Assembly (NCBI GenBank): GCA_030756715.1
Contig: JAVBJD010000005.1
Location: 1-50,833 of the forward strand
Direction of reading: 5' to 3'
DNA length: 50,833 nucleotides
Origin: Conexivisphaerales archaeon
Lineage (GTDB): Archaea; Thermoproteota; Nitrososphaeria; Conexivisphaerales; UBA164
The notes under the pieces: generated by a model
What the model saw: only the letters and a program-made list of their open reading frames with translations
Told to the model about the DNA's origin: nothing
Database searches by the model: none
In this document: positions 6,215 through 32,174 of the stretch, piece after piece
How positions within the stretch are numbered: the first letter of the stretch is position 1
Layout of the letters: every line of letters starts with the position of its first letter
Program-made: the position numbers and the translations under genes

Positions 6215-7495
6215 TCAGAACTCCCGTTCGTGAACTTTATAGAACCATTCTAGTATAATAGCAGAAAACATGAAAAATAAACCGGCAACAAAGAATGTAA
6301 AGCTATACCCTCCATAATAAGATATATAACCAGAAAACAAAGAACCTAAGAAAAGACTAAGATTAACAAAAGAGCTATAGACCCCAAGAGTTGCCCCTTG
6401 ATTTATGGTTGGTAAGTTATAGTAAAGAAGCGAGCTCAAACCAACATAAATTGGTGTATAAGCTAATCCTAATATTGTAAAGATTAGAAAAGTGATATAA
6501 AAGCTGCCCATTCCGTATACATATGAAGCAACTACTGAAGCACTTATTGCCCCTATGACCCTTATCAGCAACATGTCAACTATAAATGCGACATCTGCTT
6601 TCTGAGCTCTTTGTCTTATTTTCGGCAACATGCCGATCGAGTTTACTATAAGAATGTAAGTGCTTACGGTTAATACCATCCAGTAAGGTATTTTATTATA
6701 AACCAGATAAGGAGAATAAGAAGTAAAGAAAAGGTTTGTTGCTAAAAAGAACATGGAGCTTGCTGCTATTATTACGGGAAGCTGAAGTGCAACCGAACTT
6801 TTCATGCTTTTGAGTATCTTAAAATCGCTAAGCCTAGGAGCTCTGAGCGTCATTGCCGGCCACTTTAATATTCTGTGAAGAAAAAGGTTAAAGTTCCTGA
6901 CTTCGCTTCTTCTTTCAAAAGCTATGGGAGGATCTTTTACATAAAGATAATTAAACAGAAACGCTAGCATTAAGTACATAATTATTATATAAAGCCCGTA
7001 AAATATAGGAAATTTTATAGAGACTATTATTGTGGGTATCATACCAGCTATGTAGCCTGTAAGCATGAACATAAAAGACCATGAGTTCCCTTGTCCCCAC
7101 ATGTTTTTTGGTAACGTTTCGGTCAAAAGTAATCCTATTACCGGTATTGCAAAAGAAAAACCAAACGAGAAAAGGGTTGTAGCTATTATGACTCCTGCTA
7201 TTGTTTTCACGAAATACATTATTAAAAAGGCGATCAGCGTTATGCCCAGACTTATCGTTATTAAGTTTCTTCGCATGCCAGTAACGTCAGACAGTCTGCC
7301 ACTTAATATAGAAGTAAAAATGGGAACTATGTTGTAAAGAGCCAATGCATAACCAACCTCAATTACGTTGCCTCCTAAGTAGAGTATATAAAGTGGTACA
7401 ATGTTTACGACGATTTCTTGCGCAGCATAATAAGGTATGAGGAAATTAAACCAAGCTGGTCGCTTTGGAGATGGTTGCATTATTTGGCACCCCAC
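6215..7495 (-). CDS. MFS transporter
   Basis: About 12 hydrophobic segments; motif A GRLSDVTGMRR; start may be the ATG at 7480. Confidence 0.85.
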   Translation of the reverse strand: MGCQIMQPSPKRPAWFNFLIPYYAAQEIVVNIVPLYILYLGGNVIEVGYALALYNIVPIFTSILSGRLSDVTGMRRNLITISLGITLIAFLIMYFVKTIAGVIIATTLFSFGFSFAIPVIGLLLTETLPKNMWGQGNSWSFMFMLTGYIAGMIPTIIVSIKFPIFYGLYIIIMYLMLAFLFNYLYVKDPPIAFERRSEVRNFNLFLHRILKWPAMTLRAPRLSDFKILKSMKSSVALQLPVIIAASSMFFLATNLFFTSYSPYLVYNKIPYWMVLTVSTYILIVNSIGMLPKIRQRAQKADVAFIVDMLLIRVIGAISASVVASYVYGMGSFYITFLIFTILGLAYTPIYVGLSSLLYYNLPTINQGATLGVYSSFVNLSLFLGSLFSGYISYYGGYSFTFFVAGLFFMFSAIILEWFYKVHEREF

Positions 7496-7516
7496 AAAAT
7501 TTCTTTATATTTCATT

Positions 7517-9187
7517 TTAAGATACCACCCTTAGTAAGTAGCGTATTATATCAACTTCTGTAATAACACCAGCTAATTCCCATTTTTCGTTTATAACGAA
7601 GATGTGGTCTTCATCTGACCTAAGCATCAGCTCTATCGCATCTTTTAGCTTTGATTTTTCGCTTATGATTAGGCCTTTTTTGATCTCAAGTTCGGCAAGA
7701 GGGAGCGATCTGTAACGTTCTGGAAGCGATGCTAGGTATTCTATAGAAATATAACCCAGAAAAGCTTTTTCTTCGTTAACAACTGGTAAAGTCTTTATTG
7801 TTTTTTGCCTTAAAAGGTTAAACGCGTCTGAAACCGTCTTGGTGTGTTCAATATAAACTGGTTCTTTATTCATTATCTCACGCACGCTTGTTTCCAACAC
7901 TTCGGGGGAAGTTTTTAACGCTTTTGTATAGAATCTTTCTAGCGCAAAAGTTCCTTTGTCTAATTTGTTAGATGGCTGGTACTCATAGATAGTAAACTTA
8001 TAGCTTATAAAATAACTTGTAATTGATGCTATAAGGAGAGGTATAGCTATACTTCCTCCAATAAGCTCCAGCATAAACGTAACCGGCACAAGCACAAGCT
8101 TGTTAACGCCAGCCGCCATTGTTGCCATCCCAAGCAGGACGAAAACCACCAAGTACTTTGGGTAAATTAAATAACCGGTTATGTATCCAAACAAAGCGCC
8201 TATTTCTATGCTTGGAAGCAGGAGGCCCCCACTTGCTCCAAAGTTTATAACAGACGAAACGCTTACTAGTCTTGCAATTAAAATTAATATTGCAGCTAAG
8301 ACGCTTAATTTCATGTAAATGGTGTTATTAAGTAGTAAAAAGCCGGGTCCGATCGATGGCTGAATAATATAACCCAAAAAGCCCACCAGTAAACCGCCTA
8401 TAAGTATAAGCATGGGAAAACTGGCCAGCTTCATTAAACGCTGAGCTAAATAAGTAAACCCTTTGTAGATGCTTATAAAAGCTATTGAAAAAATTCCAGA
8501 AAGTACTCCAAAACCTAAGGATATTGCTATCAAAGTCATAGAAACTCCTGGAATTTGTATGTTTTGTACAAATATTATTGATGGAGTTTTCAGAACAAAC
8601 GACGTAAGATATGCTGTAGCTGATGCCAAAGCCGAAGGTAAAAATGGGTCTTTTTCCAGATCTCCTTTATAAGGCAATTCTAGAGCTAATAAAAAGCCAC
8701 TTATAGGAGCCTTAAATAAAGCTGTAAAACCAGCAGCTAAACCAGTCAAAAGAATGGTGTTGCTTTCTATGTTTACCTTAAATATGTCTTTTATCTTTTT
8801 TGCTATGCCGCTTCCCAGCATCGCTGCGCCACCTTCTGGACCCACTGGAGCGCCAAACGCAAAAGACAAAAACGAAGATAGAGAGTAAATAAGTGACTCT
8901 TTAAATGAAAGCGATGCCGGAGAAGTATGGTAGTACTCGAGTATTATATCAAAAGAATCCTTTGGCCTCCTTTTTAAAAACATTCTCAAAGGGAGGCTGG
9001 ACAGAATTATACTTAGAAAGATAAATGAGAAAGAAAGCTTCGGGATTTTAACCAGAGCTTCTTCAAATATCTTCCAAATGCCATAGAATATATAAAAAGA
9101 AATTGAAACAGCAAGACCGATTAAGATTCCCATCATCAGCGGAGCTATCCAGACATTTATTTCTTCCCAGCGGAATTTTGATGTCAT
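7517..9187 (-). CDS. ClC-family anion channel/antiporter with C-terminal CBS pair
   Basis: GPEGG, GLAAGFTALFKAP..G..LALE, GGLLLP; CBS repeats (VREIMNKEP, GVITEVDI). Confidence 0.9.
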   Translation of the reverse strand: MTSKFRWEEINVWIAPLMMGILIGLAVSISFYIFYGIWKIFEEALVKIPKLSFSFIFLSIILSSLPLRMFLKRRPKDSFDIILEYYHTSPASLSFKESLIYSLSSFLSFAFGAPVGPEGGAAMLGSGIAKKIKDIFKVNIESNTILLTGLAAGFTALFKAPISGFLLALELPYKGDLEKDPFLPSALASATAYLTSFVLKTPSIIFVQNIQIPGVSMTLIAISLGFGVLSGIFSIAFISIYKGFTYLAQRLMKLASFPMLILIGGLLVGFLGYIIQPSIGPGFLLLNNTIYMKLSVLAAILILIARLVSVSSVINFGASGGLLLPSIEIGALFGYITGYLIYPKYLVVFVLLGMATMAAGVNKLVLVPVTFMLELIGGSIAIPLLIASITSYFISYKFTIYEYQPSNKLDKGTFALERFYTKALKTSPEVLETSVREIMNKEPVYIEHTKTVSDAFNLLRQKTIKTLPVVNEEKAFLGYISIEYLASLPERYRSLPLAELEIKKGLIISEKSKLKDAIELMLRSDEDHIFVINEKWELAGVITEVDIIRYLLRVVS

Positions 9188-23140: not shown

Positions 23141-24076
23141 TTGAACGAGTTAGAGATCATCGAAATAATTCGAAAAATGTTTGAGGTGCGTGAATATCCT
23201 TTAACAGATGATGTGGCTTATTTGCCAAATGGCTGGGCATATAAAGTCGATATGCTAGTTAAAAGCACAGATGTACCAGAAGGCATGAATGGTTTTCAGG
23301 TAGGAAGGAAATCGGTTGCTGCGGTTCTTTCTGATTTATCGACCAAGGGCGTTAAACCAATATTTATGATGCTGAGTTTCGCATTCCAAACGGGGATAAC
23401 AAACGCGTATATTACAGAGATTCTTAACGGAATAAAACAATTGGCTTCTAAATATAAAATGATTTTAGTCGGCGGTGACGTAAATAAAGCCAATGATACA
23501 GTCATAGATTGCATTATAGCAGGCAAATACAAAAAAAAGGTTTTAAGAAGCGGAGCACGTATTGGTGATAGCGTTTATGTAGCAGGCGATTTTGGATTAA
23601 CAACTATAGGGCTAGATTATCTGCTTAACAAAAAACCAATAGTTAATGAAAAATTAAAAAGTTATGCTTTAAAGGCCGTTTATGAACCTGATCCACCTGT
23701 TAACTTTAATATCGAAGTAATAAACACAGGTTATGTGAGTGCTTCTATGGACTCAAGCGATGGTTTGGCTTATACACTTAATGAAATTGCACAACAAAGT
23801 AACGTGAAAATTGTGATAAATAATTTCCCAATGAGTGAAGAAATTAAAAAATTAATTGAATCTGAAGGTAGAGATCCTTTAAATGATTCGCTCTATGGGG
23901 GAGAAGAGTATCAAATGGTATTTACGTTTAATCAAGAAAAAGATTTTCTTTTGAATAAACTTGCTAAGAAACACAACGTAAAGGTTTTTAAAATAGGCAA
24001 GGTAGAAAATGGAAACGGTGTATTTTTGAGCAACGGTAAAAAAATAGAAAAGAAAGGATGGGTTTTTAATTTTTAG
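23141..24076 (+). CDS. thiL: Thiamine-monophosphate kinase
   Basis: ELEII, DDVA, VDMLV, LSDL..KG, GGDVN, RSGA..GD, MDSSDGL, GGEEY. Confidence 0.93.
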   Translation: MNELEIIEIIRKMFEVREYPLTDDVAYLPNGWAYKVDMLVKSTDVPEGMNGFQVGRKSVAAVLSDLSTKGVKPIFMMLSFAFQTGITNAYITEILNGIKQLASKYKMILVGGDVNKANDTVIDCIIAGKYKKKVLRSGARIGDSVYVAGDFGLTTIGLDYLLNKKPIVNEKLKSYALKAVYEPDPPVNFNIEVINTGYVSASMDSSDGLAYTLNEIAQQSNVKIVINNFPMSEEIKKLIESEGRDPLNDSLYGGEEYQMVFTFNQEKDFLLNKLAKKHNVKVFKIGKVENGNGVFLSNGKKIEKKGWVFNF

Positions 24077-24485
24077 CTCTTTTGTCTTTTAAAATAATCT
24101 TTTCTATCTTCTTATAGAAATAAACCCATTCTCTACCAACTTTTTTTCTCGAGAGCTCTCCCTTATCATACATTCTTCTTAAATAAGTTGAGATTATAGG
24201 TAACTTAACGCTTGTTTTAAAGCGATCTTCTAACGCGTTTTGAACATCTTTTGAAGTAAACCCATTTAGAGGCATGTCTTTAACTAACGATCTTATTTTG
24301 TCGTATAGATCTTTTTCAGAATTATCTTTCAGATTACCTTCGTTTGAATTATCTGACGATGATAAAAGATCGTATAGTTCCAGAAGCCGCAATACTTTAC
24401 TTTTTTCTATATCCCCCTCTACTTTAAAAGAATATCTTGCACCATTCTCATCTTCAAATTCTAGTTTTATGGCTTTCTTTGGCAA
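24066..24485 (-). CDS. Uncharacterised protein with C-terminal winged-helix DNA-binding domain, divergent from oriC/cdc6
   Basis: FTSKDVQ..LEDRF, ISTYLRRMYDKGELSRKKVGREWVY (HTH plus wing); beta-rich N-terminal domain; TTG start. Confidence 0.75.
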   Translation of the reverse strand: MPKKAIKLEFEDENGARYSFKVEGDIEKSKVLRLLELYDLLSSSDNSNEGNLKDNSEKDLYDKIRSLVKDMPLNGFTSKDVQNALEDRFKTSVKLPIISTYLRRMYDKGELSRKKVGREWVYFYKKIEKIILKDKRAKN

Positions 24486-24496
24486 GCCTCTTTGAT

Positions 24497-24546
24497 TTTG
24501 TTAACAAATTTAAATAATAAACATATTTAGTAATTTTTGTTAACAA
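24497..24546. promoter_or_regulatory. Twin TTGTTAACAA palindromes flanking the TATA of the wHTH gene
   Basis: TTTGTTAACAAA at 24497-24508 and TTGTTAACAA at 24537-24546; minus-strand TTATTTAAA between them. Confidence 0.6.
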
Positions 24547-24634
24547 GTTATCAAAGATTCTAAGAATGGTCTATGACCTTAATTAATTATTAACTTATAA
24601 TTGTTTATTTTTAGTTATATAAAAAATTATAGTG

Positions 24635-24656
24635 GCTCCAGTGGAAACAGAGGGGT
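24635..24656 (+). repeat. ORB1
   Basis: GCTCCAGTGGAAACAGAGGGGT matches the archaeal ORB (TCCAGTGGAAAC..AGGGG). Confidence 0.95.
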
Positions 24657-24693
24657 TAATTTACAGTTAATGATTGATAATAAGGCTGCATTT

Positions 24694-24715
24694 GCTCCAG
24701 TGGAAATAAAGGGGT
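24694..24715 (+). repeat. ORB2
   Basis: GCTCCAGTGGAAATAAAGGGGT. Confidence 0.95.
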
Positions 24716-24781
24716 TCGATATCTATATAGTTAAAATATCATATTAACAAAAAATTAACAATTTAAATAATAAACCGCTCC
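24716..24781. other. Candidate duplex-unwinding element
   Basis: 66-bp AT-rich spacer between inward-facing G-strings of ORB2 and ORB3. Confidence 0.65.
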
Positions 24782-24803
24782 ACCCCTGTATTTCATCTGT
24801 ATC
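24782..24803 (-). repeat. ORB3 (inverted, degenerate)
   Basis: Reverse complement GATACAGATGAAATACAGGGGT. Confidence 0.8.
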
Positions 24804-24939
24804 TATTATTTTTATTAATCAATCATTGTTTTTATTTTTAAAATAATTAAATATCGTTTAAAAAAATTAACTAATAGTAAAATTATCTTTATTTTTACCT
24901 TTTTAATTTCTTTTTTACTTTATTATTTTTGTTAAAAAA

Positions 24940-24961
24940 GATGCAATGGAAATTAAGGGGT
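24940..24961 (+). repeat. ORB4 (degenerate), 10 nt before the cdc6 start
   Basis: GATGCAATGGAAATTAAGGGGT. Confidence 0.75.
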
Positions 24962-24971
24962 GTAGGGGACT

Positions 24972-26189
24972 TTGTCTGAATTTTTAGATGATATATTTAA
25001 TAAAATATCTTCCGGGAAATCAATATTTAAAAATCGCGAAGTTTTAAACATAGATTACATACCAAAAAGAATACTTTTTAGAGAAGACCAAATAAAAAAG
25101 ATAGGAGAAACGCTTTCACCAATTATTAAAGGTGCTAAACCATCAAATCTTTTACTTTACGGCAAAACTGGAACAGGTAAAACCATGGTAGCTAGATATG
25201 TTATAAATAAGCTTAACGATTATATAAAAGATCAAAACACGATTTTTGTTTATCTTAATTGTAGAATAGATGGAACATTATACAGAGTTCTAAGCGAAAT
25301 TGGAGAGTATATAGGATTAAAAATTCCTTTTACTGGTTTATCCTTAAGCGAAGTAGAAAAAAGAATATTTAACCACCTTGTAGATAAAGGCATAAAACTC
25401 GTTTTGGTTTTAGACGAAATAGATTTTTTGGTTAACAATCCAGCTAAAAGGGATATAGGAAACGATGTACTTTACGATTTTACAAGATATGACAGCATAT
25501 ATAATAAAAGCGGTTCTAACAGCTTCATTACAATAGTAGGTATTTCAAACGATTTAAAATTCATGGAATATCTTGAAGGTAGGGTTCAAAGCAGCCTTAG
25601 ATCAGAAGAGATATTATTTCCGCCTTATACAGTAGAAGAAATAAAAGAAATTTTAAAGGACAGGGTAAAAGAGGCATTTGTAGAAAATTCAGTAAATGAT
25701 GAAATAATAAACCTTATTGCAGCTTATTCAGGCAGTGAACACGGTGATGCAAGGCGAGCCGTAGATCTCCTTAGAGTATCAGGCGAGTTGGCTGAAAGAG
25801 AAGGACGGGATAAAATTTACGAAAAAGACGTGCAGGAAGCATTAAAAAATATAGAGAAGGACAAAGTACAAGAAGCCATTTCATCTTTACCTATACATGA
25901 AAAAGCAGTTATATTTTCTATCGCTACTTTTCCAAACGGCGAGACTACAGGCCATGTTTATTTAAAATACCAAGAAATTTGCAATCAATTAGGTTTGCAG
26001 CCTTTAACGCAAAGAAGAATAAGCGCAATAATAAACGAACTTGACATGTTAGGTTTAGTAACGGCACCTATTATAAATAGAGGTAGGCACGGTAGATCAA
26101 AAAAAGTTCAGCTAACTGTGGATAAGAACCAAATAGTTGGAACGTTAAAAAATGATGAAATATTTAAATTACTTTTTAACTCCATTTAA
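24972..26189 (+). CDS. cdc6: Orc1/Cdc6 replication initiator
   Basis: IFKNREVL..DYIP, GKTGTGKT, VLDEID, FPPY, GDARRA.DLLR, wHTH with ELDMLG and RGRHGR; TTG start. Confidence 0.98.
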   Translation: MSEFLDDIFNKISSGKSIFKNREVLNIDYIPKRILFREDQIKKIGETLSPIIKGAKPSNLLLYGKTGTGKTMVARYVINKLNDYIKDQNTIFVYLNCRIDGTLYRVLSEIGEYIGLKIPFTGLSLSEVEKRIFNHLVDKGIKLVLVLDEIDFLVNNPAKRDIGNDVLYDFTRYDSIYNKSGSNSFITIVGISNDLKFMEYLEGRVQSSLRSEEILFPPYTVEEIKEILKDRVKEAFVENSVNDEIINLIAAYSGSEHGDARRAVDLLRVSGELAEREGRDKIYEKDVQEALKNIEKDKVQEAISSLPIHEKAVIFSIATFPNGETTGHVYLKYQEICNQLGLQPLTQRRISAIINELDMLGLVTAPIINRGRHGRSKKVQLTVDKNQIVGTLKNDEIFKLLFNSI

Positions 26190-26898: not shown

Positions 26899-28944
26899 TC
26901 ATAAAACCATTATCAATATACCTATTAACTTAATAGCTAGAAACGGAAGTATTACACCACCTAATCCGTAGATAAGAACATTTTCTAAAAAAACTCTTTT
27001 TGGTGATCTGGGTTTGAAAGAAATGCCTTTAATGGCTATAGGCATTAATATTGGAATTATTAACGCATTATAAATAAGCGCCGCAATAACAGCAACGTGT
27101 AGTGGTAAATGCAAAACATTAAGTGTTTTTGCAACGCTTAAAAAACTAAGTAGCGCGGGCAACACTACAAAATACTTTGATACATCATTAGCAATGGAAA
27201 ATGTAGCCAAGGACCCTCGCGTAATTAGTAATTGCTTACCTAATTTTATTACATCGATAATTTTGGATGGATCCGATTCTAGATCTATCATGTTAGCGGC
27301 CTCTTTGGCTACTTCAGTGCCTGAATACATAGCTAGTCCAACGTTTGCTCTTGCAAGAGCTGGAGCGTCATTAGTACCATCACCAACCATAGCTATAGTT
27401 TTTCCTTTACTTTGTTCCTCAATAACTTTTTTGTATTTATCTTCAGGTTTTGCCTGCGATATAACGTTGTTAATACCAACTTCAGAAGCTATAATTTGTG
27501 CAGTTATAGGGTGGTCGCCAGTGACCATGTACGGCTCTATTCCCATGGATTTTAATGCTTCAATCTGTTCTTTCACACCCTCTTTTAAAACGTCTTTAAG
27601 CTCAACTAGTCCAATTATTTCGTCGCCTACAGCAACAGCTAATGGGGTGCCTCCTTCTTTCGCAATCTCCTCTAACTTTTCGTCGAAATCAGGAGGGGCT
27701 CTAAAAATAGACTTCATTACATCTGGAGCCCCTTTAAAGATAGGCATCTTTTCATTTAAGTACACGCCATAAAAATCCGATTTTCTTATTAACCTCATCT
27801 CTTTATAAATTTCTTTTCCAGGTAATCGTATAGATTTATAATAAATACCGCTTTTTCTGGTTTTCGCAGAAAATTCCTCGTATGATGATATAATCGCTTG
27901 ATCTATCTCGCTTGGCAGATAGTTTTTGCTTTGAAGATATCTCAAAATGGCTTTTCCCTCTTGGGTGTCGTCTTGAACAGAAGACAAAAAAAGGGCCTTA
28001 GCTACTTCTTCTTCTGTATGTGAACCAAGTGGAATTATTTTTACTGGTTCTCGTTTACCCACAGTTATAGTGCCCGTTTTGTCTAACAAAACAACATCTA
28101 TATCGCCTGCTGCCTCTATTGCCTTCCCAGATTTTGATACTACATTTATGTTCCAAAGACGAGTCAATCCTGAAATACCTATAGCTTCTTCTAGCGCGCC
28201 AATCGTAGTAGGCAACAAACAAACGTAAAAGCCCAACAGAATTGGCAGATTTAAAGAATAACCTAAAAGATTGATGGTTATGCCTAAAGAAAAAACAACA
28301 AAGCTTAACAACAACGTTAGACCATAAATTAAAATATCCAACTGCTTTTCGCTTTCGCCTTTGGGTCTTTTAGTTTTTTCAATCATTCCAGCAATTCTAT
28401 AAACATAAGATTCTTTTAGTGTCTTAGTTACCCTTACTTTGATCCAGTCGCTTACTACTTTACTGCCTGAAATAACTTCATCATTAACAGATTTAATAAC
28501 GGGCAACGATTCACCGGTAACTAGTGATTCATCTATTGCGGCAACACCTTCTACGATAACGCCGTCTAGAGGTATAATCTCGTTTTCCTTGACTAAAATA
28601 ACATCTTCTGCTGATACCGCATCTGGAGGCACATAAACTTCAGAACCATTCGGTAATATTTTTCTTACAGAAAGGTTTGAAGTTACTTTCAAAAGCGATG
28701 AGGCCGTTATTTTAGCCTGATGTTCAGAATAAGAATCTGCAAAAGTGCCGAACCAAACAGTTGCAAATATAAGAACTGTTATAGAAACGTAGAAAAAGCT
28801 AAACTCTTTTATAAAAAACATATACATTAAAGACAGCAAGAAAGAAATTTCTGTAAGGAACATAACAGGGTTCTTTTTAAGATAAATTGGAGATAGACGT
28901 ATTATGGAATTTTTTATTATTTGAAAATAATCTTTTAATTCCAC
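26899..28944 (-). CDS. kdpB: K+-transporting P-type ATPase subunit B
   Basis: KNPVMF, TGES, CLLPTTIG, DKTGT, KGAP, GDGTND, TFSIANDVSKYF (Asp/Lys coupling pair). Confidence 0.95.
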   Translation of the reverse strand: MELKDYFQIIKNSIIRLSPIYLKKNPVMFLTEISFLLSLMYMFFIKEFSFFYVSITVLIFATVWFGTFADSYSEHQAKITASSLLKVTSNLSVRKILPNGSEVYVPPDAVSAEDVILVKENEIIPLDGVIVEGVAAIDESLVTGESLPVIKSVNDEVISGSKVVSDWIKVRVTKTLKESYVYRIAGMIEKTKRPKGESEKQLDILIYGLTLLLSFVVFSLGITINLLGYSLNLPILLGFYVCLLPTTIGALEEAIGISGLTRLWNINVVSKSGKAIEAAGDIDVVLLDKTGTITVGKREPVKIIPLGSHTEEEVAKALFLSSVQDDTQEGKAILRYLQSKNYLPSEIDQAIISSYEEFSAKTRKSGIYYKSIRLPGKEIYKEMRLIRKSDFYGVYLNEKMPIFKGAPDVMKSIFRAPPDFDEKLEEIAKEGGTPLAVAVGDEIIGLVELKDVLKEGVKEQIEALKSMGIEPYMVTGDHPITAQIIASEVGINNVISQAKPEDKYKKVIEEQSKGKTIAMVGDGTNDAPALARANVGLAMYSGTEVAKEAANMIDLESDPSKIIDVIKLGKQLLITRGSLATFSIANDVSKYFVVLPALLSFLSVAKTLNVLHLPLHVAVIAALIYNALIIPILMPIAIKGISFKPRSPKRVFLENVLIYGLGGVILPFLAIKLIGILIMVL

Positions 28945-28950
28945 CTTTTA

Positions 28951-30474
28951 TCACCCCATTGAAAGAGGCCCTAAAGCCAATAAAGGCAATAATGAAATTA
29001 TAACTAGCAAAAATATAAAGAAAACTAATGAAAAGGAAAAGTATAAAGAATCTAGCTTTAAATCTGATTTTGTAAAACTTTTATCTTTATTTATAAATGA
29101 CTCAGTCATTTTTATCCCAAAATAGAATGGTACATAACGCCCTAACAGCATTAACATGCCTGTAATAATATTAAGAGCGCTTATATTGCCGTTTACGCCA
29201 TAAAAATCTGAACCGTTATTTACGCTAGCTGAAACAACCTCCCAAAGAAGTTTAGTAAAATCATACCCAGGCGAAAAGTTGAACTGGTGCAAAGTAAAAA
29301 TAATTAATGGTATAGCAGTAAGAACCAAAGCAAAATGAAATATATAGCCGAGAACTGCATATTTAATTTCTCTGTATTCTAACTTGTAACCAAAAAGCTT
29401 AGGCATCCTCCCGCTCATTAAAGCCGAAAAAAAGATTGTTATAACGATAATAAATATTAGTGAAATAAAACCGCTGCCTACGCTTCCTGGCAGAGAATCG
29501 CTTAGCATCAATGTGATAAAAGCGGCTAATTGAACCGGAGATAAAGCATTTAATGGAAAAACAGCCGCACCGGTATTTGTAGATATGGAAGAATAAAACA
29601 GGCTTAATGAAGAATATTCATTTAGATCAGCTGGTATCAATGAGTTGAGTATTACATAAGTTTTATCTAAAATGATTAAATTAAAAACAAAAAAGAACGT
29701 CAAAATTGCTATTAACAATGAAACGCTCAATTTAATATTTTTTGTTACTATGCCGATTAGAAAAATTAATGAAAAAGGCAGCACATTTAAAACTATTATA
29801 TCTAAAAACGCGGTTAGAGAATTTGGCATTAGCGGTCCAGCAGCTATACCTTCTGTAATATATGAACCGCCGTTATTGCCAAGCAACGTTATTGCATTAT
29901 AAAGACTTAATGGGGCATTTTTGATGCCTGCCATAAAAGAAAAAGAATAACCGAAGGACAAGCCAAGTAAATTAAATAAAATTGTTACAACAAATGTTAA
30001 GGCTGAGAGCAATAATATACTCATAATAAAGTCTCGATAAAAATTACCATATTTTTTTAAAAAAATTGATCTAAACATAGATAAAGAGACCGATAATCCA
30101 GTGGCTGGAGCCACAAATTGCAGATAATAGAGGCTAGTGGTTTGAGTGAAATAAGTAAGCTGTTGGTTAATAAAATGCTGCAAGTTGGTATTTGTTATGT
30201 ATGATGTGATGATATTAAACCATAAAAATTGATCATGTGATATTAAATATGTGATCCATAAAATCACAAAAGCTATTATAACTGAAAAGACATTAACAAT
30301 AATAACGCTTGTTAAATATTCGTTTGCGCTCATATCCCAGTTAAAAGGCTTTTGTAAATAATTTTTGTCGAAGAAAATTTTATGCATTATTATGGCAATA
30401 ACAAAAGAGAACAAAATAGCAACAAAATAAACAAATATGAACCAAACGATATATTGAACTATAGCTATACTCAA
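28951..30474 (-). CDS. kdpA: K+-transporting ATPase subunit A (divergent)
   Basis: Filter motifs TNTNLQH, LGNNGGS, NTGA, NNGS; LMSGR.P; LGRY; LALGP. Confidence 0.9.
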   Translation of the reverse strand: MSIAIVQYIVWFIFVYFVAILFSFVIAIIMHKIFFDKNYLQKPFNWDMSANEYLTSVIIVNVFSVIIAFVILWITYLISHDQFLWFNIITSYITNTNLQHFINQQLTYFTQTTSLYYLQFVAPATGLSVSLSMFRSIFLKKYGNFYRDFIMSILLLSALTFVVTILFNLLGLSFGYSFSFMAGIKNAPLSLYNAITLLGNNGGSYITEGIAAGPLMPNSLTAFLDIIVLNVLPFSLIFLIGIVTKNIKLSVSLLIAILTFFFVFNLIILDKTYVILNSLIPADLNEYSSLSLFYSSISTNTGAAVFPLNALSPVQLAAFITLMLSDSLPGSVGSGFISLIFIIVITIFFSALMSGRMPKLFGYKLEYREIKYAVLGYIFHFALVLTAIPLIIFTLHQFNFSPGYDFTKLLWEVVSASVNNGSDFYGVNGNISALNIITGMLMLLGRYVPFYFGIKMTESFINKDKSFTKSDLKLDSLYFSFSLVFFIFLLVIISLLPLLALGPLSMG

Positions 30475-30941
30475 TTCTACTCACTCAAGTACATTTTTCC
30501 TTTTTCATCGATTATGTATTTATAAGGTTTACTATTATTAACTCGTTTTAAATAACCTTGATTGGCTAAAGCAGATAAAAGCCTAGATGCATGTTCTCTT
30601 GTGATATTAAATTGTTGTATCACATCACGCGTTGTGATTTCTGATTTATAAGCCAATTTTATGATCTCTATCTGTGTGCTATTAAGATCCCCTTTTTCAA
30701 CATTCCTTTTTTTAGTTTTTATAACATTCTCAGCCGTCATTTCATTTAGATCAGTCTCGATTTTTTTGTTTATTATTAGTTCTTTTGATATATCTTGGAA
30801 TAATTTATAATTTTCATCAATTTTTTTAATTTTTAAAAACAAATAAAATAAAGTAGATAGTGACAATGATATAGATGCTAGTGAGATTATCACAATCAGC
30901 GTTGTGATGTTCATATATTGATTAAAATATTATCATGTGAT
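30201..30941. repeat. Cluster of ten TGTGAT/ATCACA hexamers, including two ATCACA-N8-TGTGAT palindromes
   Basis: Copies start at 30205, 30236, 30250, 30263, 30600, 30619, 30633, 30889, 30903, 30936. Confidence 0.8.
30477..30914 (-). CDS. Membrane-anchored winged-helix protein (N-terminal TM helix, charged linker, wHTH)
   Basis: Hydrophobic residues ~6-27 followed by KIKK; LNSTQIEII, ITTRDV..QFNITREHASRLLS.L...GYL.R....PY.Y.I.EKG. Confidence 0.8.
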   Translation of the reverse strand: MNITTLIVIISLASISLSLSTLFYLFLKIKKIDENYKLFQDISKELIINKKIETDLNEMTAENVIKTKKRNVEKGDLNSTQIEIIKLAYKSEITTRDVIQQFNITREHASRLLSALANQGYLKRVNNSKPYKYIIDEKGKMYLSE

Positions 30942-31026
30942 TATATAAACATTGTACTATCCCTTTTAATTTGTTATGACCGAGTATTTTATTTAGCTTT
31001 AATCATAATATCATAAAAACATTTAA

Positions 31027-31046
31027 ACTATACAAACATGTATAGT
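31027..31046. promoter_or_regulatory. Perfect inverted repeat ACTATACA-N4-TGTATAGT between TATA and start codon
   Basis: TTTAAA at 31022-31027, palindrome at 31027-31046, GTG at 31052. Confidence 0.6.
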
Positions 31047-31051
31047 ATAGC

Positions 31052-31441
31052 GTGTCCGTTCCTAACAAAAATGAAGTAAAATCGCTTATAAAACAAATCA
31101 TAGAAAATTCATGTATAACAGAATTAGAATTTTTATCGTTAATTAATCAAAAAAGTGGAAGATTTCAAAATGAATCGAGTAATATTTCTAATATATACAT
31201 AAAATTTTTAAAAAAATCTTCAGGAGAAAGGTCAACAATCAAAAGGCGAGCAAGACAAAACGTTAAATCCTGCTTTATGACGTTAATTTTGTTTATGTCA
31301 CTAAATTTAATAACAGATAAAAACCTAATTCAGTTAAAAGAAATAAGTGATATGATAACAAGAATAATAAACGTTGAAAATGAAGAGCTTTATAAAAAAT
31401 TAGATGAGTTGTTGGAGACGATGATTAAAGAACTTTTTTAA
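31052..31441 (+). CDS. Hypothetical helical protein, weak Tfx-like HTH resemblance
   Basis: 129-aa ORF filling the gap; ITELE and STIKRRARQNVKSCFMTL recall Tfx LTERQ / EKRA..NI..A..TL. Confidence 0.6.
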   Translation: MSVPNKNEVKSLIKQIIENSCITELEFLSLINQKSGRFQNESSNISNIYIKFLKKSSGERSTIKRRARQNVKSCFMTLILFMSLNLITDKNLIQLKEISDMITRIINVENEELYKKLDELLETMIKELF

Positions 31442-32174
31442 TCTCTTTACAAATCTGATTAAATTTTTCTCCCCCGCCTTCTTTTTCTAATAAATTTCCT
31501 ATCACTAAACCATCTGCTCCCGCTTTAGCGATTTCATTTGCTTTGTTTATATCTGTAATGCCTCCTCCTACCAAAAGCAGGCCTTGATACAGCCTTTTAC
31601 TCAAAGCGACGGCCTCTGAAGTTATTGGCGTAGAAGTTCCCGAACCGCCTTCTAAATAAACAATTTTAAACCCAAAATGTTTTGCTGCCAAGACATAAAG
31701 CGATATGAGCTCAGGAATAGAAGGTATAGGTCTAACATGACCTATATGAGATACTGCGCTATCTGAATTTACTACTATATATCCAGTTGGTATTGTTTCT
31801 AATTTATATCTTTCTATTAAAGGTGAAGCAAGCACCTGTGCGTCAATTATATAATAAGTTAAAGCCGAATTCATTAACATCATATAAAAAATCGCATCTG
31901 CCTTTTTAGAAATAGCATTAATGTTATTTGGAAATATAATTACCGGCAGGTCAACGCTCTTTTTAATGCATTCAATAGTTCTATCAAGGTCTTCCTGAGC
32001 TATTAGAGTTGAACCCCCAACTAGAAAGGCATCTATCATGCTCGTATCTACCTCTTTCAGTTTTTTTGCTATTTTTGAAGTATCGGGGAAATTCACAGGA
32101 TCTAAAAGAGGAAGGCACAGCCTGCTACTTTCTCTACTATTAAGTAATTTCTGATACACAGATATTTTACTCAT
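31425..32174 (-). CDS. Geranylgeranylglyceryl phosphate synthase
   Basis: LLDP, FLVGGS, PVIIFP, ADAI, PTGYIVV, YLEGGSG, VGGGI, GADGLVIGN. Confidence 0.95.
   Translation of the reverse strand: MSKISVYQKLLNSRESSRLCLPLLDPVNFPDTSKIAKKLKEVDTSMIDAFLVGGSTLIAQEDLDRTIECIKKSVDLPVIIFPNNINAISKKADAIFYMMLMNSALTYYIIDAQVLASPLIERYKLETIPTGYIVVNSDSAVSHIGHVRPIPSIPELISLYVLAAKHFGFKIVYLEGGSGTSTPITSEAVALSKRLYQGLLLVGGGITDINKANEIAKAGADGLVIGNLLEKEGGGEKFNQICKEIKKVL

Follow-up and report, generated by a model that had tools for sequence, protein, structure and literature searches.

Why should a short stretch of archaeal DNA near a likely replication origin hold ten copies of one hexamer in and around the gene of a small, apparently membrane-anchored DNA-binding protein? 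The question is raised by 50,833 nucleotides of DNA from a Conexivisphaerales archaeon (assembly GCA_030756715.1, contig JAVBJD010000005.1, positions 1 to 50,833), hereafter called the window, in which the hexamer TGTGAT, or its reverse complement ATCACA, recurs as a series of boxes ringing the gene of a 145-aa protein. This protein, here called TM-wHTH, combines a predicted transmembrane (TM) helix with a winged helix-turn-helix (wHTH) domain, and its gene is followed by the pump genes kdpA and kdpB. An initial annotation had proposed that the boxes are centromere-type sites through which the protein tethers the origin region to the membrane, with control of kdpAB as the alternative. We find that the array is real and under DNA-level selection, and our comparisons suggest that it belongs to an ancestral module, kept without kdp outside a single family, in which the boxes would at the least form an operator of the gene that they surround.

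The ten hexamers fall within 741 bp (30201-30941), at 30205, 30236, 30250, 30263(-), 30600, 30619(-), 30633, 30889(-), 30903 and 30936, the minus sign marking ATCACA, and one more lies at 29512. Over the whole window the motif is not enriched (17 copies against 16.8 expected from shuffles), and it is the placing of 10 of these 17 inside the 741 bp that departs from chance (binomial P = 7.7e-15). First-order Markov simulation of the array region gave a mean of 0.76 copies and a maximum of 6, and none of 5000 runs reached ten. The genome of 1.26 Mb holds 336 hexamers, and its next densest 750-bp stretch has three. Nine of the ten boxes are coding, within the wHTH gene and nucleotides 1-330 of kdpA. 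Over this coding stretch, synonymous permutation within genes gave a mean of 1.94 and a maximum of 7, codon resampling from window usage gave a mean of 0.71 and a maximum of 4, and neither reached nine in 2000 trials (0/2000 each). The codons used by the boxes are rare in the window, where 8% of Ile residues are encoded by ATC and 10% of Val residues by GTG. The initial annotation had located all eleven copies correctly, had estimated under one copy for the span with only scattered ones elsewhere, and had taken the ATC and GTG codons of the boxes, in a very AT-rich stretch, as a sign of selection on the DNA; these statements hold, and the comparison with a codon-shuffled background that it had named as a check comes out in their favor.

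The boxes form three subclusters (Table 1). At the promoter, the box at 30936-30941 lies directly 3' of the TATA-like element TTTATATA on the coding strand, which reads TTTATATA-ATCACA and then, 21 nt later, ATG; the other two boxes of this subcluster make up codons 3-9. The element is kept as TTTATAT(A/G) at equal distance in loci L001-L005, and its position and consensus suggest that it is the TATA box. Within the wHTH coding sequence the boxes encode I-T (ATC ACA), D-V-I (GAT GTG ATA) and the I-T of N-I-T-R-E-H, and among the 9 listed orthologous loci only L009 lacks the D-V-(I/M) box. The kdpA boxes keep the same 31/12-nt spacing in same-genus orthologues. Longer strings are also repeated, ATCATGTGAT at 30232 and 30932 and TGTGATATTAAAT at 30236 and 30600, and these were correctly reported before, as were two ATCACA-N8-TGTGAT pairs. 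The N8 pairing occurs at none of the 8 other listed orthologous loci, and the conserved unit is the single hexamer, not the pair. Around the divergent promoter, the G+C content of 30400-31400 falls to 0.23-0.26, compared with 0.41 for the genome and ~0.33 for neighboring genes.

In the window's own family (f1), the TM-wHTH gene stands directly upstream of kdpA in all genomes read, namely 8/8 of the same genus, 4/4 of genus g3 and 1/1 of genus g4, and the genes for geranylgeranylglyceryl phosphate synthase (GGGPS) and for a 129-aa protein (p129) lie on its other side. The 2-nt gap between the wHTH stop and the kdpA start, already noted in the initial annotation, is read directly from the sequence and its open reading frames (ORFs); in L003-L005 the two genes overlap. 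All 13 loci of the family carry 3-9 boxes in the wHTH gene plus kdpA nucleotides 1-330, with 2-5 in the kdpA part and 0-1 in the ~1.2 kb of kdpA that follows. When synonymous codons are permuted in the pooled genes, 0-5 of 1000 trials attain the observed count at 12 of these loci and 21 of 1000 do so at L009. At 12 correctly anchored kdpA loci of other families (L046, mis-anchored, was left out), kdpA nucleotides 1-330 hold no box, and the nearest one stands at +341 in L053. In f1, p129 has been inverted and kdpA inserted, and the boxes occupy the new downstream DNA. Because kdpAB follows the wHTH gene only in this family, the pump genes are best read, from gene order, as a later passenger of the module.

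Further observations concern kdpA itself. Among the kdpA loci of other families, L047-L060, a divergent full-length Lrp/AsnC gene lies 5' of kdpA (L048, L051), and in L055-L060 a stand-alone Lrp/AsnC ligand-binding (RAM)-like protein of ~100 aa precedes it, the domains being judged by eye in both cases. In L025/L045 (G007:C34 ~6425-7878), from a genome of the window's own genus, kdpA lies in three pieces with 3 TGA and 2 TAA codons, and the locus has a run of 100 N; either the gene is broken or the assembly is at fault.

The module itself, that is, p129, TM-wHTH and the box array, is found between the GGGPS gene and a group formed by a gene for a 139-aa protein (p139), the origin (oriC) and cdc6. 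A phylum-wide sample gave matches to the protein in 143 of 251 genomes at E <= 1e-6, including 34/34 Nitrosopumilaceae; at least 547 relatives of the Nitrosopumilaceae form occur in species-representative genomes, and homologues are present in most other families of the class. For Nitrosopumilaceae we compared the 64 full-length loci among 80, leaving out 16 shorter than 5.5 kb; L092, L093 and L094, weak matches lacking the synteny, were not counted as orthologues. All 64 have GGGPS, p129, TM-wHTH, p139 and cdc6 in the same order and orientation and no kdp, with the start of cdc6 ~1.2 kb past the wHTH stop. In 29 loci of other families of the class the order is GGGPS, p129 homologue, TM-wHTH, p139 homologue, gap and cdc6; kdp is absent from all of them, and cdc6 lies within ~1.3 kb of the wHTH gene in 27, the two misses being contig ends. 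Where these genomes have kdpA, it is not linked to the wHTH gene, being on a different contig or at a large distance. The initial annotation's own test, which asked whether the boxes, the partner gene and the proximity of cdc6 persist in homologues without kdp, is therefore answered in the affirmative.

The boxes follow the same pattern. In the 64 Nitrosopumilaceae loci, the interval from -350 to +50 of the wHTH start holds 5-11 boxes (mean 8.2), and flanking DNA has 0.36 per 400 bp. About twelve box positions are shared, each by 38-60 of the 64 loci: five TGTGAT boxes over the spacer and the p129 homologue's 3' end, ATCACA ~30 nt before the wHTH start, TGTGAT over the GTG/ATG start itself, one box at +36, and ATCACA boxes at about +126, +402 and +438 of the gene. 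The upstream boxes are unidirectional, 30-50 nt apart and without inverted partners, and several lie upstream of the TATA region. Since the bases that flank the boxes carry almost no information, the unit is the bare hexamer. In a codon count on 63 of these genes (one more was removed by a length filter), boxed Ile codons are ATC in 63/63 and 54/54 sequences, and unboxed Ile codons of the same genes are ATC in 9%; ACA and GTG in boxes show the same bias. Each locus holds 8-12 boxes in all, under synonymous-site constraint. A search of five complete genomes for a triple-box pattern placed 6 of 7 matches at the wHTH locus, two genomes having no match; here, as in the window genome, there is one array per genome. 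Box clusters are also found in other families of the class, and a box lies between the TATA-like element and the wHTH start in every lineage read. In L065 (G019:C1), three overlapping TGTGAT boxes with a 5-nt GTGAT period stand immediately 3' of the wHTH stop; read on the opposite strand, they fall within the last codons of the convergent p139 homologue.

Beyond the class, twenty loci were compared, of which 14 encode a form of the protein that has a membrane helix and whose coiled coil is often longer, and 14 have cdc6 within 5 kb. Their boxes, between TATA and start, take the form of doublets (TGTGATnTGTGAT) and palindromes (TGTGATATCACA). The placement of this form in Bathyarchaeia comes from source names, and 4522 protein clusters match it at E <= 1e-10. 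Within 450 bp of the gene start, members with the membrane helix have 0-10 boxes (mean 4.7, n=14) and members without it 0-3 (mean 1.0, n=6), in a sample that is small and of related loci. The opposite case is provided by family f3, in which no wHTH match was found in eight genomes (0/8) and in which, at both loci examined (2/2), GGGPS, p139 and cdc6 stay in place and the wHTH gene, p129 and the boxes are gone. This pattern of loss indicates that p129, TM-wHTH and the boxes are gained and lost as a unit, and the distribution as a whole points to a module ancestral to Nitrososphaeria and Bathyarchaeia.

The protein encoded among the boxes has the layout that had been read from its sequence in the initial annotation, with a TM helix, a linker and a winged helix. 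In the AlphaFold2 (AF2) model, built on a 13-sequence alignment (predicted local distance difference test, pLDDT, 84), one helix spans residues 3-61, the first ~25 residues of it being hydrophobic, and a low-confidence linker (63-74) leads to the wHTH domain (79-144). The winged-helix fold is present at a pLDDT of ~90, with helices 79-90, 95-102 and 106-118 and strands 122-124 and 133-135, and a single short C-terminal helix (137-144) follows the wing. The top Foldseek matches in the Protein Data Bank (PDB) are the MarR/ArsR-type regulators AdcR, HsmR, HlyU and CzrA (E 7e-5 to 3e-4), and a profile search of PDB sequences gave AdcR (E 1.7e-5). The canonical MarR dimerisation helices are absent from the model, which has the N-terminal helix and linker instead. 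Relatives exceed the Pfam cut-offs of MarR, HTH_27 or TrmB (PF01978): the orthologue L018 passes HTH_27 (PF13463, 35.7 bits against 22.2) and MarR (PF01047, 32.6 against 24.6), and the relative L209 passes MarR (31.6 against 24.6). No Pfam or NCBIfam family beyond generic MarR/TrmB was matched, Pfam scans, run on the window protein and on relatives of it, gave no ParB-family match, and neither the wHTH protein nor p129 has a Pfam match to a histidine kinase or receiver domain.

Orthologues retain the hydrophobic helix, which begins ~1-16 residues from the N terminus, and are invariant for R-E-H-x-x-R in the recognition helix; the linker between the long helix and the wHTH domain is flexible and poorly conserved. 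Distant homologues of 150-215 aa also have the N-terminal hydrophobic helix. No sensor domain beyond the membrane is visible in the model or in the orthologue sequences, and the model shows nothing ahead of the TM helix. Databases name members of the family 'hypothetical', 'MarR family', 'winged helix DNA-binding', 'predicted transcriptional regulator' or 'CsgD family', and one is named 'chromosome segregation ATPase'; one homologue of the 145-aa protein is labelled by its source as Nitrososphaeria archaeon. A fusion of KdpF with a wHTH domain was considered and rejected: a genome-wide search with PF09604 gave no match at the wHTH gene and no KdpF match beyond weak ones elsewhere (E 0.1 and 1.0), and the membrane helix, being present in relatives without kdp, predates the kdp linkage.

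We consider it modestly probable that the boxes are read by TM-wHTH, that the array shuts the promoter of this protein's own gene, that the module is ancestral, and that binding also holds origin-flanking DNA at the membrane. The TGTGAT/ATCACA hexamers would be the recognition boxes of a protein with few residues outside the cell, one membrane helix running into a long helix, a linker of ~17 residues and a cytoplasmic winged helix. The recognition helix with R-E-H-x-x-R would read the hexamer, and the flexible linker would allow each winged helix to take one; this, we propose, may be why spacing and orientation differ from box to box and the hexamer is constant. When occupied, an array over the TATA-start region would shut off the wHTH promoter, and in f1 this autorepression would also set the level of kdpAB, which belong to the same transcription unit. 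Here kdpAB may do without a KdpDE-type regulator because the pump genes have been placed behind the module's self-controlled promoter. Since the protein could not leave the membrane, its presence on the boxes would place the DNA there and thereby hold the region that flanks the origin.

Autorepression is the minimal reading of these sequences: given that boxes follow the TATA element and cover the start in every lineage read, self-repression is very likely, and an operator role would be at least part of their function. TM-wHTH is the best candidate for binding the boxes because its recognition helix is invariant together with the hexamer and because the array centers on its gene, and also because p139 persists without boxes and the basic segment of p129 is not conserved.

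Several points weigh against this account. The choice of TM-wHTH as reader is a prediction, and p129 and p139, which are always nearby, could read the boxes. The window protein stays under every Pfam cut-off (HTH_Crp_2, 22 bits against 27; TrmB, 18.9 against 25.6), and the N8 palindromes of the initial annotation are not conserved. Among the membrane-anchored relatives, L212 and L219 have 0 boxes near the gene and L215 has 1. In genera g3 and g4 of f1 the module is kept and no cdc6 lies within 7-10 kb, which speaks against a strict role at the origin. Finally, 8-12 boxes over ~750 bp of coding DNA exceed what autorepression needs, and repression may therefore be a by-product of another function.

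The surroundings of the module are given in Table 1. The minus-strand gene row runs from the 145-aa ORF through kdpA and kdpB to the genes for ribosomal protein L21e and an Rpb4-like RNA polymerase subunit, and on the other flank an arginyl-tRNA synthetase gene follows the GGGPS gene. The gap upstream of cdc6 is likely oriC. It contains ctccagtggaaa...ggggt repeats at 24636 and 24695 and further degenerate copies, and the genome has no copy of the core CCAGTGGAAA other than those at 24638 and 24697; we take these repeats to resemble archaeal origin recognition box (ORB) elements. The distance to this gap is ~5.2-6.3 kb, in agreement with the ~5.5 kb given in the initial annotation. In the 64 Nitrosopumilaceae loci, where the core CCAGTGGAAA was not found in the gap upstream of cdc6, we infer that oriC lies in the gap between cdc6 and p139. 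The kdp operon of the window consists of kdpA and kdpB; a KdpC-like gene (159 aa) is on another contig (G000 C23 6705-7184), with no box cluster near it. DNA of the window also occurs in hot-spring metagenome runs.

Table 1. Features of the window discussed in the text, with their coordinates.
Feature	Position	Strand	Basis or remark
p139, 139 aa, C-terminal winged-helix-like part	24066..24485	-	adjoins the gap upstream of cdc6
AT-rich 486-bp gap, likely oriC	24486..24971	.	ctccagtggaaa...ggggt ORB-like repeats
cdc6/orc1	24972..26189	+	Pfam Cdc6_C and Cdc6_lid
kdpB, P-type ATPase	26899..28944	-	Pfam E1-E2_ATPase and Hydrolase
kdpA	28951..30474	-	Pfam KdpA, E 3e-68; start 2 nt after wHTH stop
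Box subcluster, first 270 nt of kdpA	30205..30268	.	TGTGAT 30205, 30236, 30250; ATCACA 30263
TM-wHTH gene, 145 aa	30477..30914	-	ORF
Box subcluster in wHTH coding sequence	30600..30638	.	TGTGAT 30600, ATCACA 30619, TGTGAT 30633
Promoter box subcluster	30889..30941	.	ATCACA 30889, TGTGAT 30903, TGTGAT 30936
TATA-like element TTTATATA of the wHTH-kdpAB promoter	30942..30949	-	named from position and consensus
Perfect 18-bp palindrome CTATACA-N4-TGTATAG, CTATACAAACATGTATAG	31028..31045	.	between TTTAAA element and p129 start
p129, 129 aa, all-helical, divergent from TM-wHTH	31052..31441	+	ORF; AF2 pLDDT 77
GGGP synthase, PcrB family, module flank	31425..32174	-	Pfam PcrB, E 3e-48; synteny

A reading close to that of the initial annotation makes the main function structural: the array would be a centromere-like landing pad, the membrane protein would pin origin-flanking DNA for segregation, origin positioning or replication control, and repression of its own gene would come as a side effect, much as it does for ParB sites in or near parB. 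We regard this as possible and somewhat doubtful. The position beside oriC is kept across families and classes, in genes that do not form one operon (64/64, 27/29, and 14/20 with cdc6 within 5 kb), and each locus holds its 8-12 boxes under synonymous-site constraint, in a single array per genome, around a protein with no sensor domain outside the membrane. When p129 was inverted and kdpA inserted in f1, boxes were gained in the new downstream DNA, not lost. Members with the membrane helix have more boxes than those without it, within the small and related sample given above. A bacterial analogue with the same logic is RicO, which according to a 2026 preprint binds nine ricS sites around oriC (10.64898/2026.03.06.710092). 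Against pinning as the primary role, g3 and g4 have the module without cdc6 within 7-10 kb, no ParA/SegA-type partner was seen in the module, and the array spans less than 1 kb at one locus, whereas parS, ram and ricS sites span tens to hundreds of kilobases; moreover, overlap with the promoter alone accounts for at least part of the array. The number of boxes, the constraint in coding DNA, the single array and the position by oriC go beyond the needs of an operator, and the tether idea therefore stays alive. The initial proposal is partly supported: linkage to the origin side, and not to kdp, has stood, and the support is limited by the evident operator role and by the two genera without a nearby cdc6. 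We tentatively suggest that Nitrososphaeria and Bathyarchaeia might share an ancestral origin-anchoring device, in which a TGTGAT array ~1 kb from oriC is held at the membrane; such a device would position or segregate new origins, or gate initiation.

The alternative offered in the initial annotation, a membrane-bound one-component regulator of kdpAB, appears unlikely. Such a protein would sense K+ or turgor at the membrane and control the K+ pump, with the kdpA boxes serving as additional operators or as roadblocks. It would fit the tight or overlapping junction of the wHTH gene with kdpA, the presence of boxes in the 5' end of kdpA at 13/13 f1 loci, and the occurrence in other families of an Lrp/AsnC or RAM-domain gene in the slot 5' of kdpA. 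Outside f1, however, kdp is missing at every locus that has the protein, p129 and the boxes (64/64 and 29/29 loci), and kdpA, where those genomes have it, is elsewhere; the protein has few residues outside the membrane and no obvious sensor; and the kdpC-like gene is unlinked and lacks a box cluster. Because the module persists without kdp, regulation of kdp is not its ancestral role and its link to the origin is real. Control of kdp is at most a secondary, family-specific use of the module.

It is also rather improbable that the boxes are read by p129 or p139 and that TM-wHTH binds another site, such as the palindrome TATACA-N4-TGTATA. Both proteins are conserved neighbors, and a second conserved operator does exist. 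The palindrome CTATACAAACATGTATAG is unique in the genome; in 57 of the 64 Nitrosopumilaceae loci TATACAGATTTGTATA stands 4 nt before the ATG of the p129 homologue; the palindrome also lies upstream of the p129 homologue in the Bathyarchaeia-type loci L209, L216, L218 and L223, and it is absent from the two f3 loci examined. The loss of p129 with the boxes in f3 agrees with p129 as reader, and co-loss therefore does not separate p129 from the wHTH protein. Nevertheless, the boxes center on the wHTH gene and not on the p129 promoter, and p129 has no recognisable DNA-binding fold. It gave no Pfam or NCBIfam match, no PDB sequence below E 0.25 and no Foldseek match below E 5; its Atlas matches are unnamed Nitrososphaerota clusters, in one of which 14% of members have Sigma70_r4, and its conserved segment may resemble the helix-turn-helix of GerE or sigma region 4. 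The window p129 and its 120-aa Nitrosopumilaceae counterpart are homologous (hhalign probability 97.2%, E 3e-11), and the basic segment differs between families, whereas the hexamer is invariant. Complex prediction for p129 with TM-wHTH, run with two alignments, scored 0.00 against a mark of 0.32, which gives no answer and is evidence neither way.

For p139, the objection to its being the reader is that it stays in the f3 loci that have no boxes. It is 39% identical to its Nitrosopumilaceae counterpart (E 2e-29), has a weak Penicillinase_R match (22.0 bits against a cut-off of 22.6) and a weak CopY match, and directly borders the cdc6-upstream gap in 64/64 Nitrosopumilaceae loci, a place that it keeps in f3 without the module. 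These features make p139 a candidate origin-associated factor that is in no curated family. TACA...TGTA cores are those of BlaI/CopY-type operators, and we take the weak matches of p139 as no more than a lead for the palindrome.

A further possibility, which we hold to be very improbable, is that the membrane anchor keeps the factor inactive until proteolysis frees the winged helix for the array and for scattered boxes, in the manner of SREBP or an anti-sigma factor. The flexible, poorly conserved linker between the long helix and the wHTH domain would suit cleavage, and real targets could be among the 326 other boxes of the genome, which stand singly; on the other side, no protease gene was seen in the module, the box count of the whole window equals chance expectation, and the genome has no second cluster. 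A role of the hexamers at the RNA level, in which they would pair into hairpins or be bound by a protein on the operon transcript, is hardly credible: the window has three pairs able to make stems of 6 bp (ATCACA-N8-TGTGAT twice, TGTGAT-N7-ATCACA once), but these pairs are not conserved, the upstream boxes of Nitrosopumilaceae run in one direction with no inverted partner and in several cases upstream of the TATA region, and the arms never vary, so that there is no covariation to support pairing.

Returning to TM-wHTH as a self-repressing reader of the boxes that may also hold DNA at the membrane, the module offers a concrete protein and DNA site for experiments in cultured Nitrosopumilus, and it is present in every Nitrosopumilaceae genome examined. 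A 2016 review of archaeal genome segregation describes for Nitrosopumilus maritimus only the timing of the cell cycle and names no segregation machinery for Thaumarchaea (PMC5120986). If the tether is true, archaea without known segregation machinery would gain their first described system of chromosome-membrane attachment. If autoregulation is all there is, a membrane-fixed MarR-type factor with an array of 5-12 boxes held by synonymous-site selection would still be unusual. In the literature, judged mostly on titles and the openings of abstracts, we found no description of the protein family, of a TGTGAT array or of a membrane-anchored binder beside archaeal origins.

Several known systems share single features with the module. 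In the KdpD/KdpE-kdpFABC system, as here, a regulator gene adjoins kdp; in our case, however, it encodes no kinase or receiver domain, lies upstream in the same transcription unit and is linked to kdp in one family only. ToxR and CadC of bacteria and ArnR/ArnR1 of Sulfolobus carry a DNA-binding domain on their own TM helix, with a sensor outside or near the membrane. TM-wHTH has the same TM-fixed arrangement, but with few residues outside and no visible sensor. ParB with parS, RacA with ram and archaeal SegB are site-specific binders whose sites cluster at the origin, partly in or beside their own genes, and which repress their operons. Compared with ParB/parS, the site here is a hexamer instead of a 16-bp palindrome, the protein has no ParB domain in Pfam, and the membrane anchor is part of the binder; the gene lists show no ParA-like ORF among the module neighbors, no genome-wide search having been made. 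RicO/ricS of Staphylococcus aureus is proposed to anchor origins at the membrane. RicO joins a DNA-binding domain to a coiled coil and touches the membrane through a C-terminal amphipathic helix, and its nine 18-bp ricS sites are spread over ~700 kb (10.64898/2026.03.06.710092). The likeness is one of architecture only, and the system described here is archaeal, with an N-terminal TM helix and a sub-kilobase array at its own gene. The MarR-family autoregulators, finally, with AdcR, HsmR and BldR among the top fold matches, have the same wHTH fold (E ~1e-4) and sites over their own promoters. TM-wHTH differs from them in having a membrane helix and a long helix in place of the two-helix dimerisation and ligand domain, and its site is a bare hexamer in arrays of 5-12 boxes that reach into coding DNA, where theirs is one or two palindromes.

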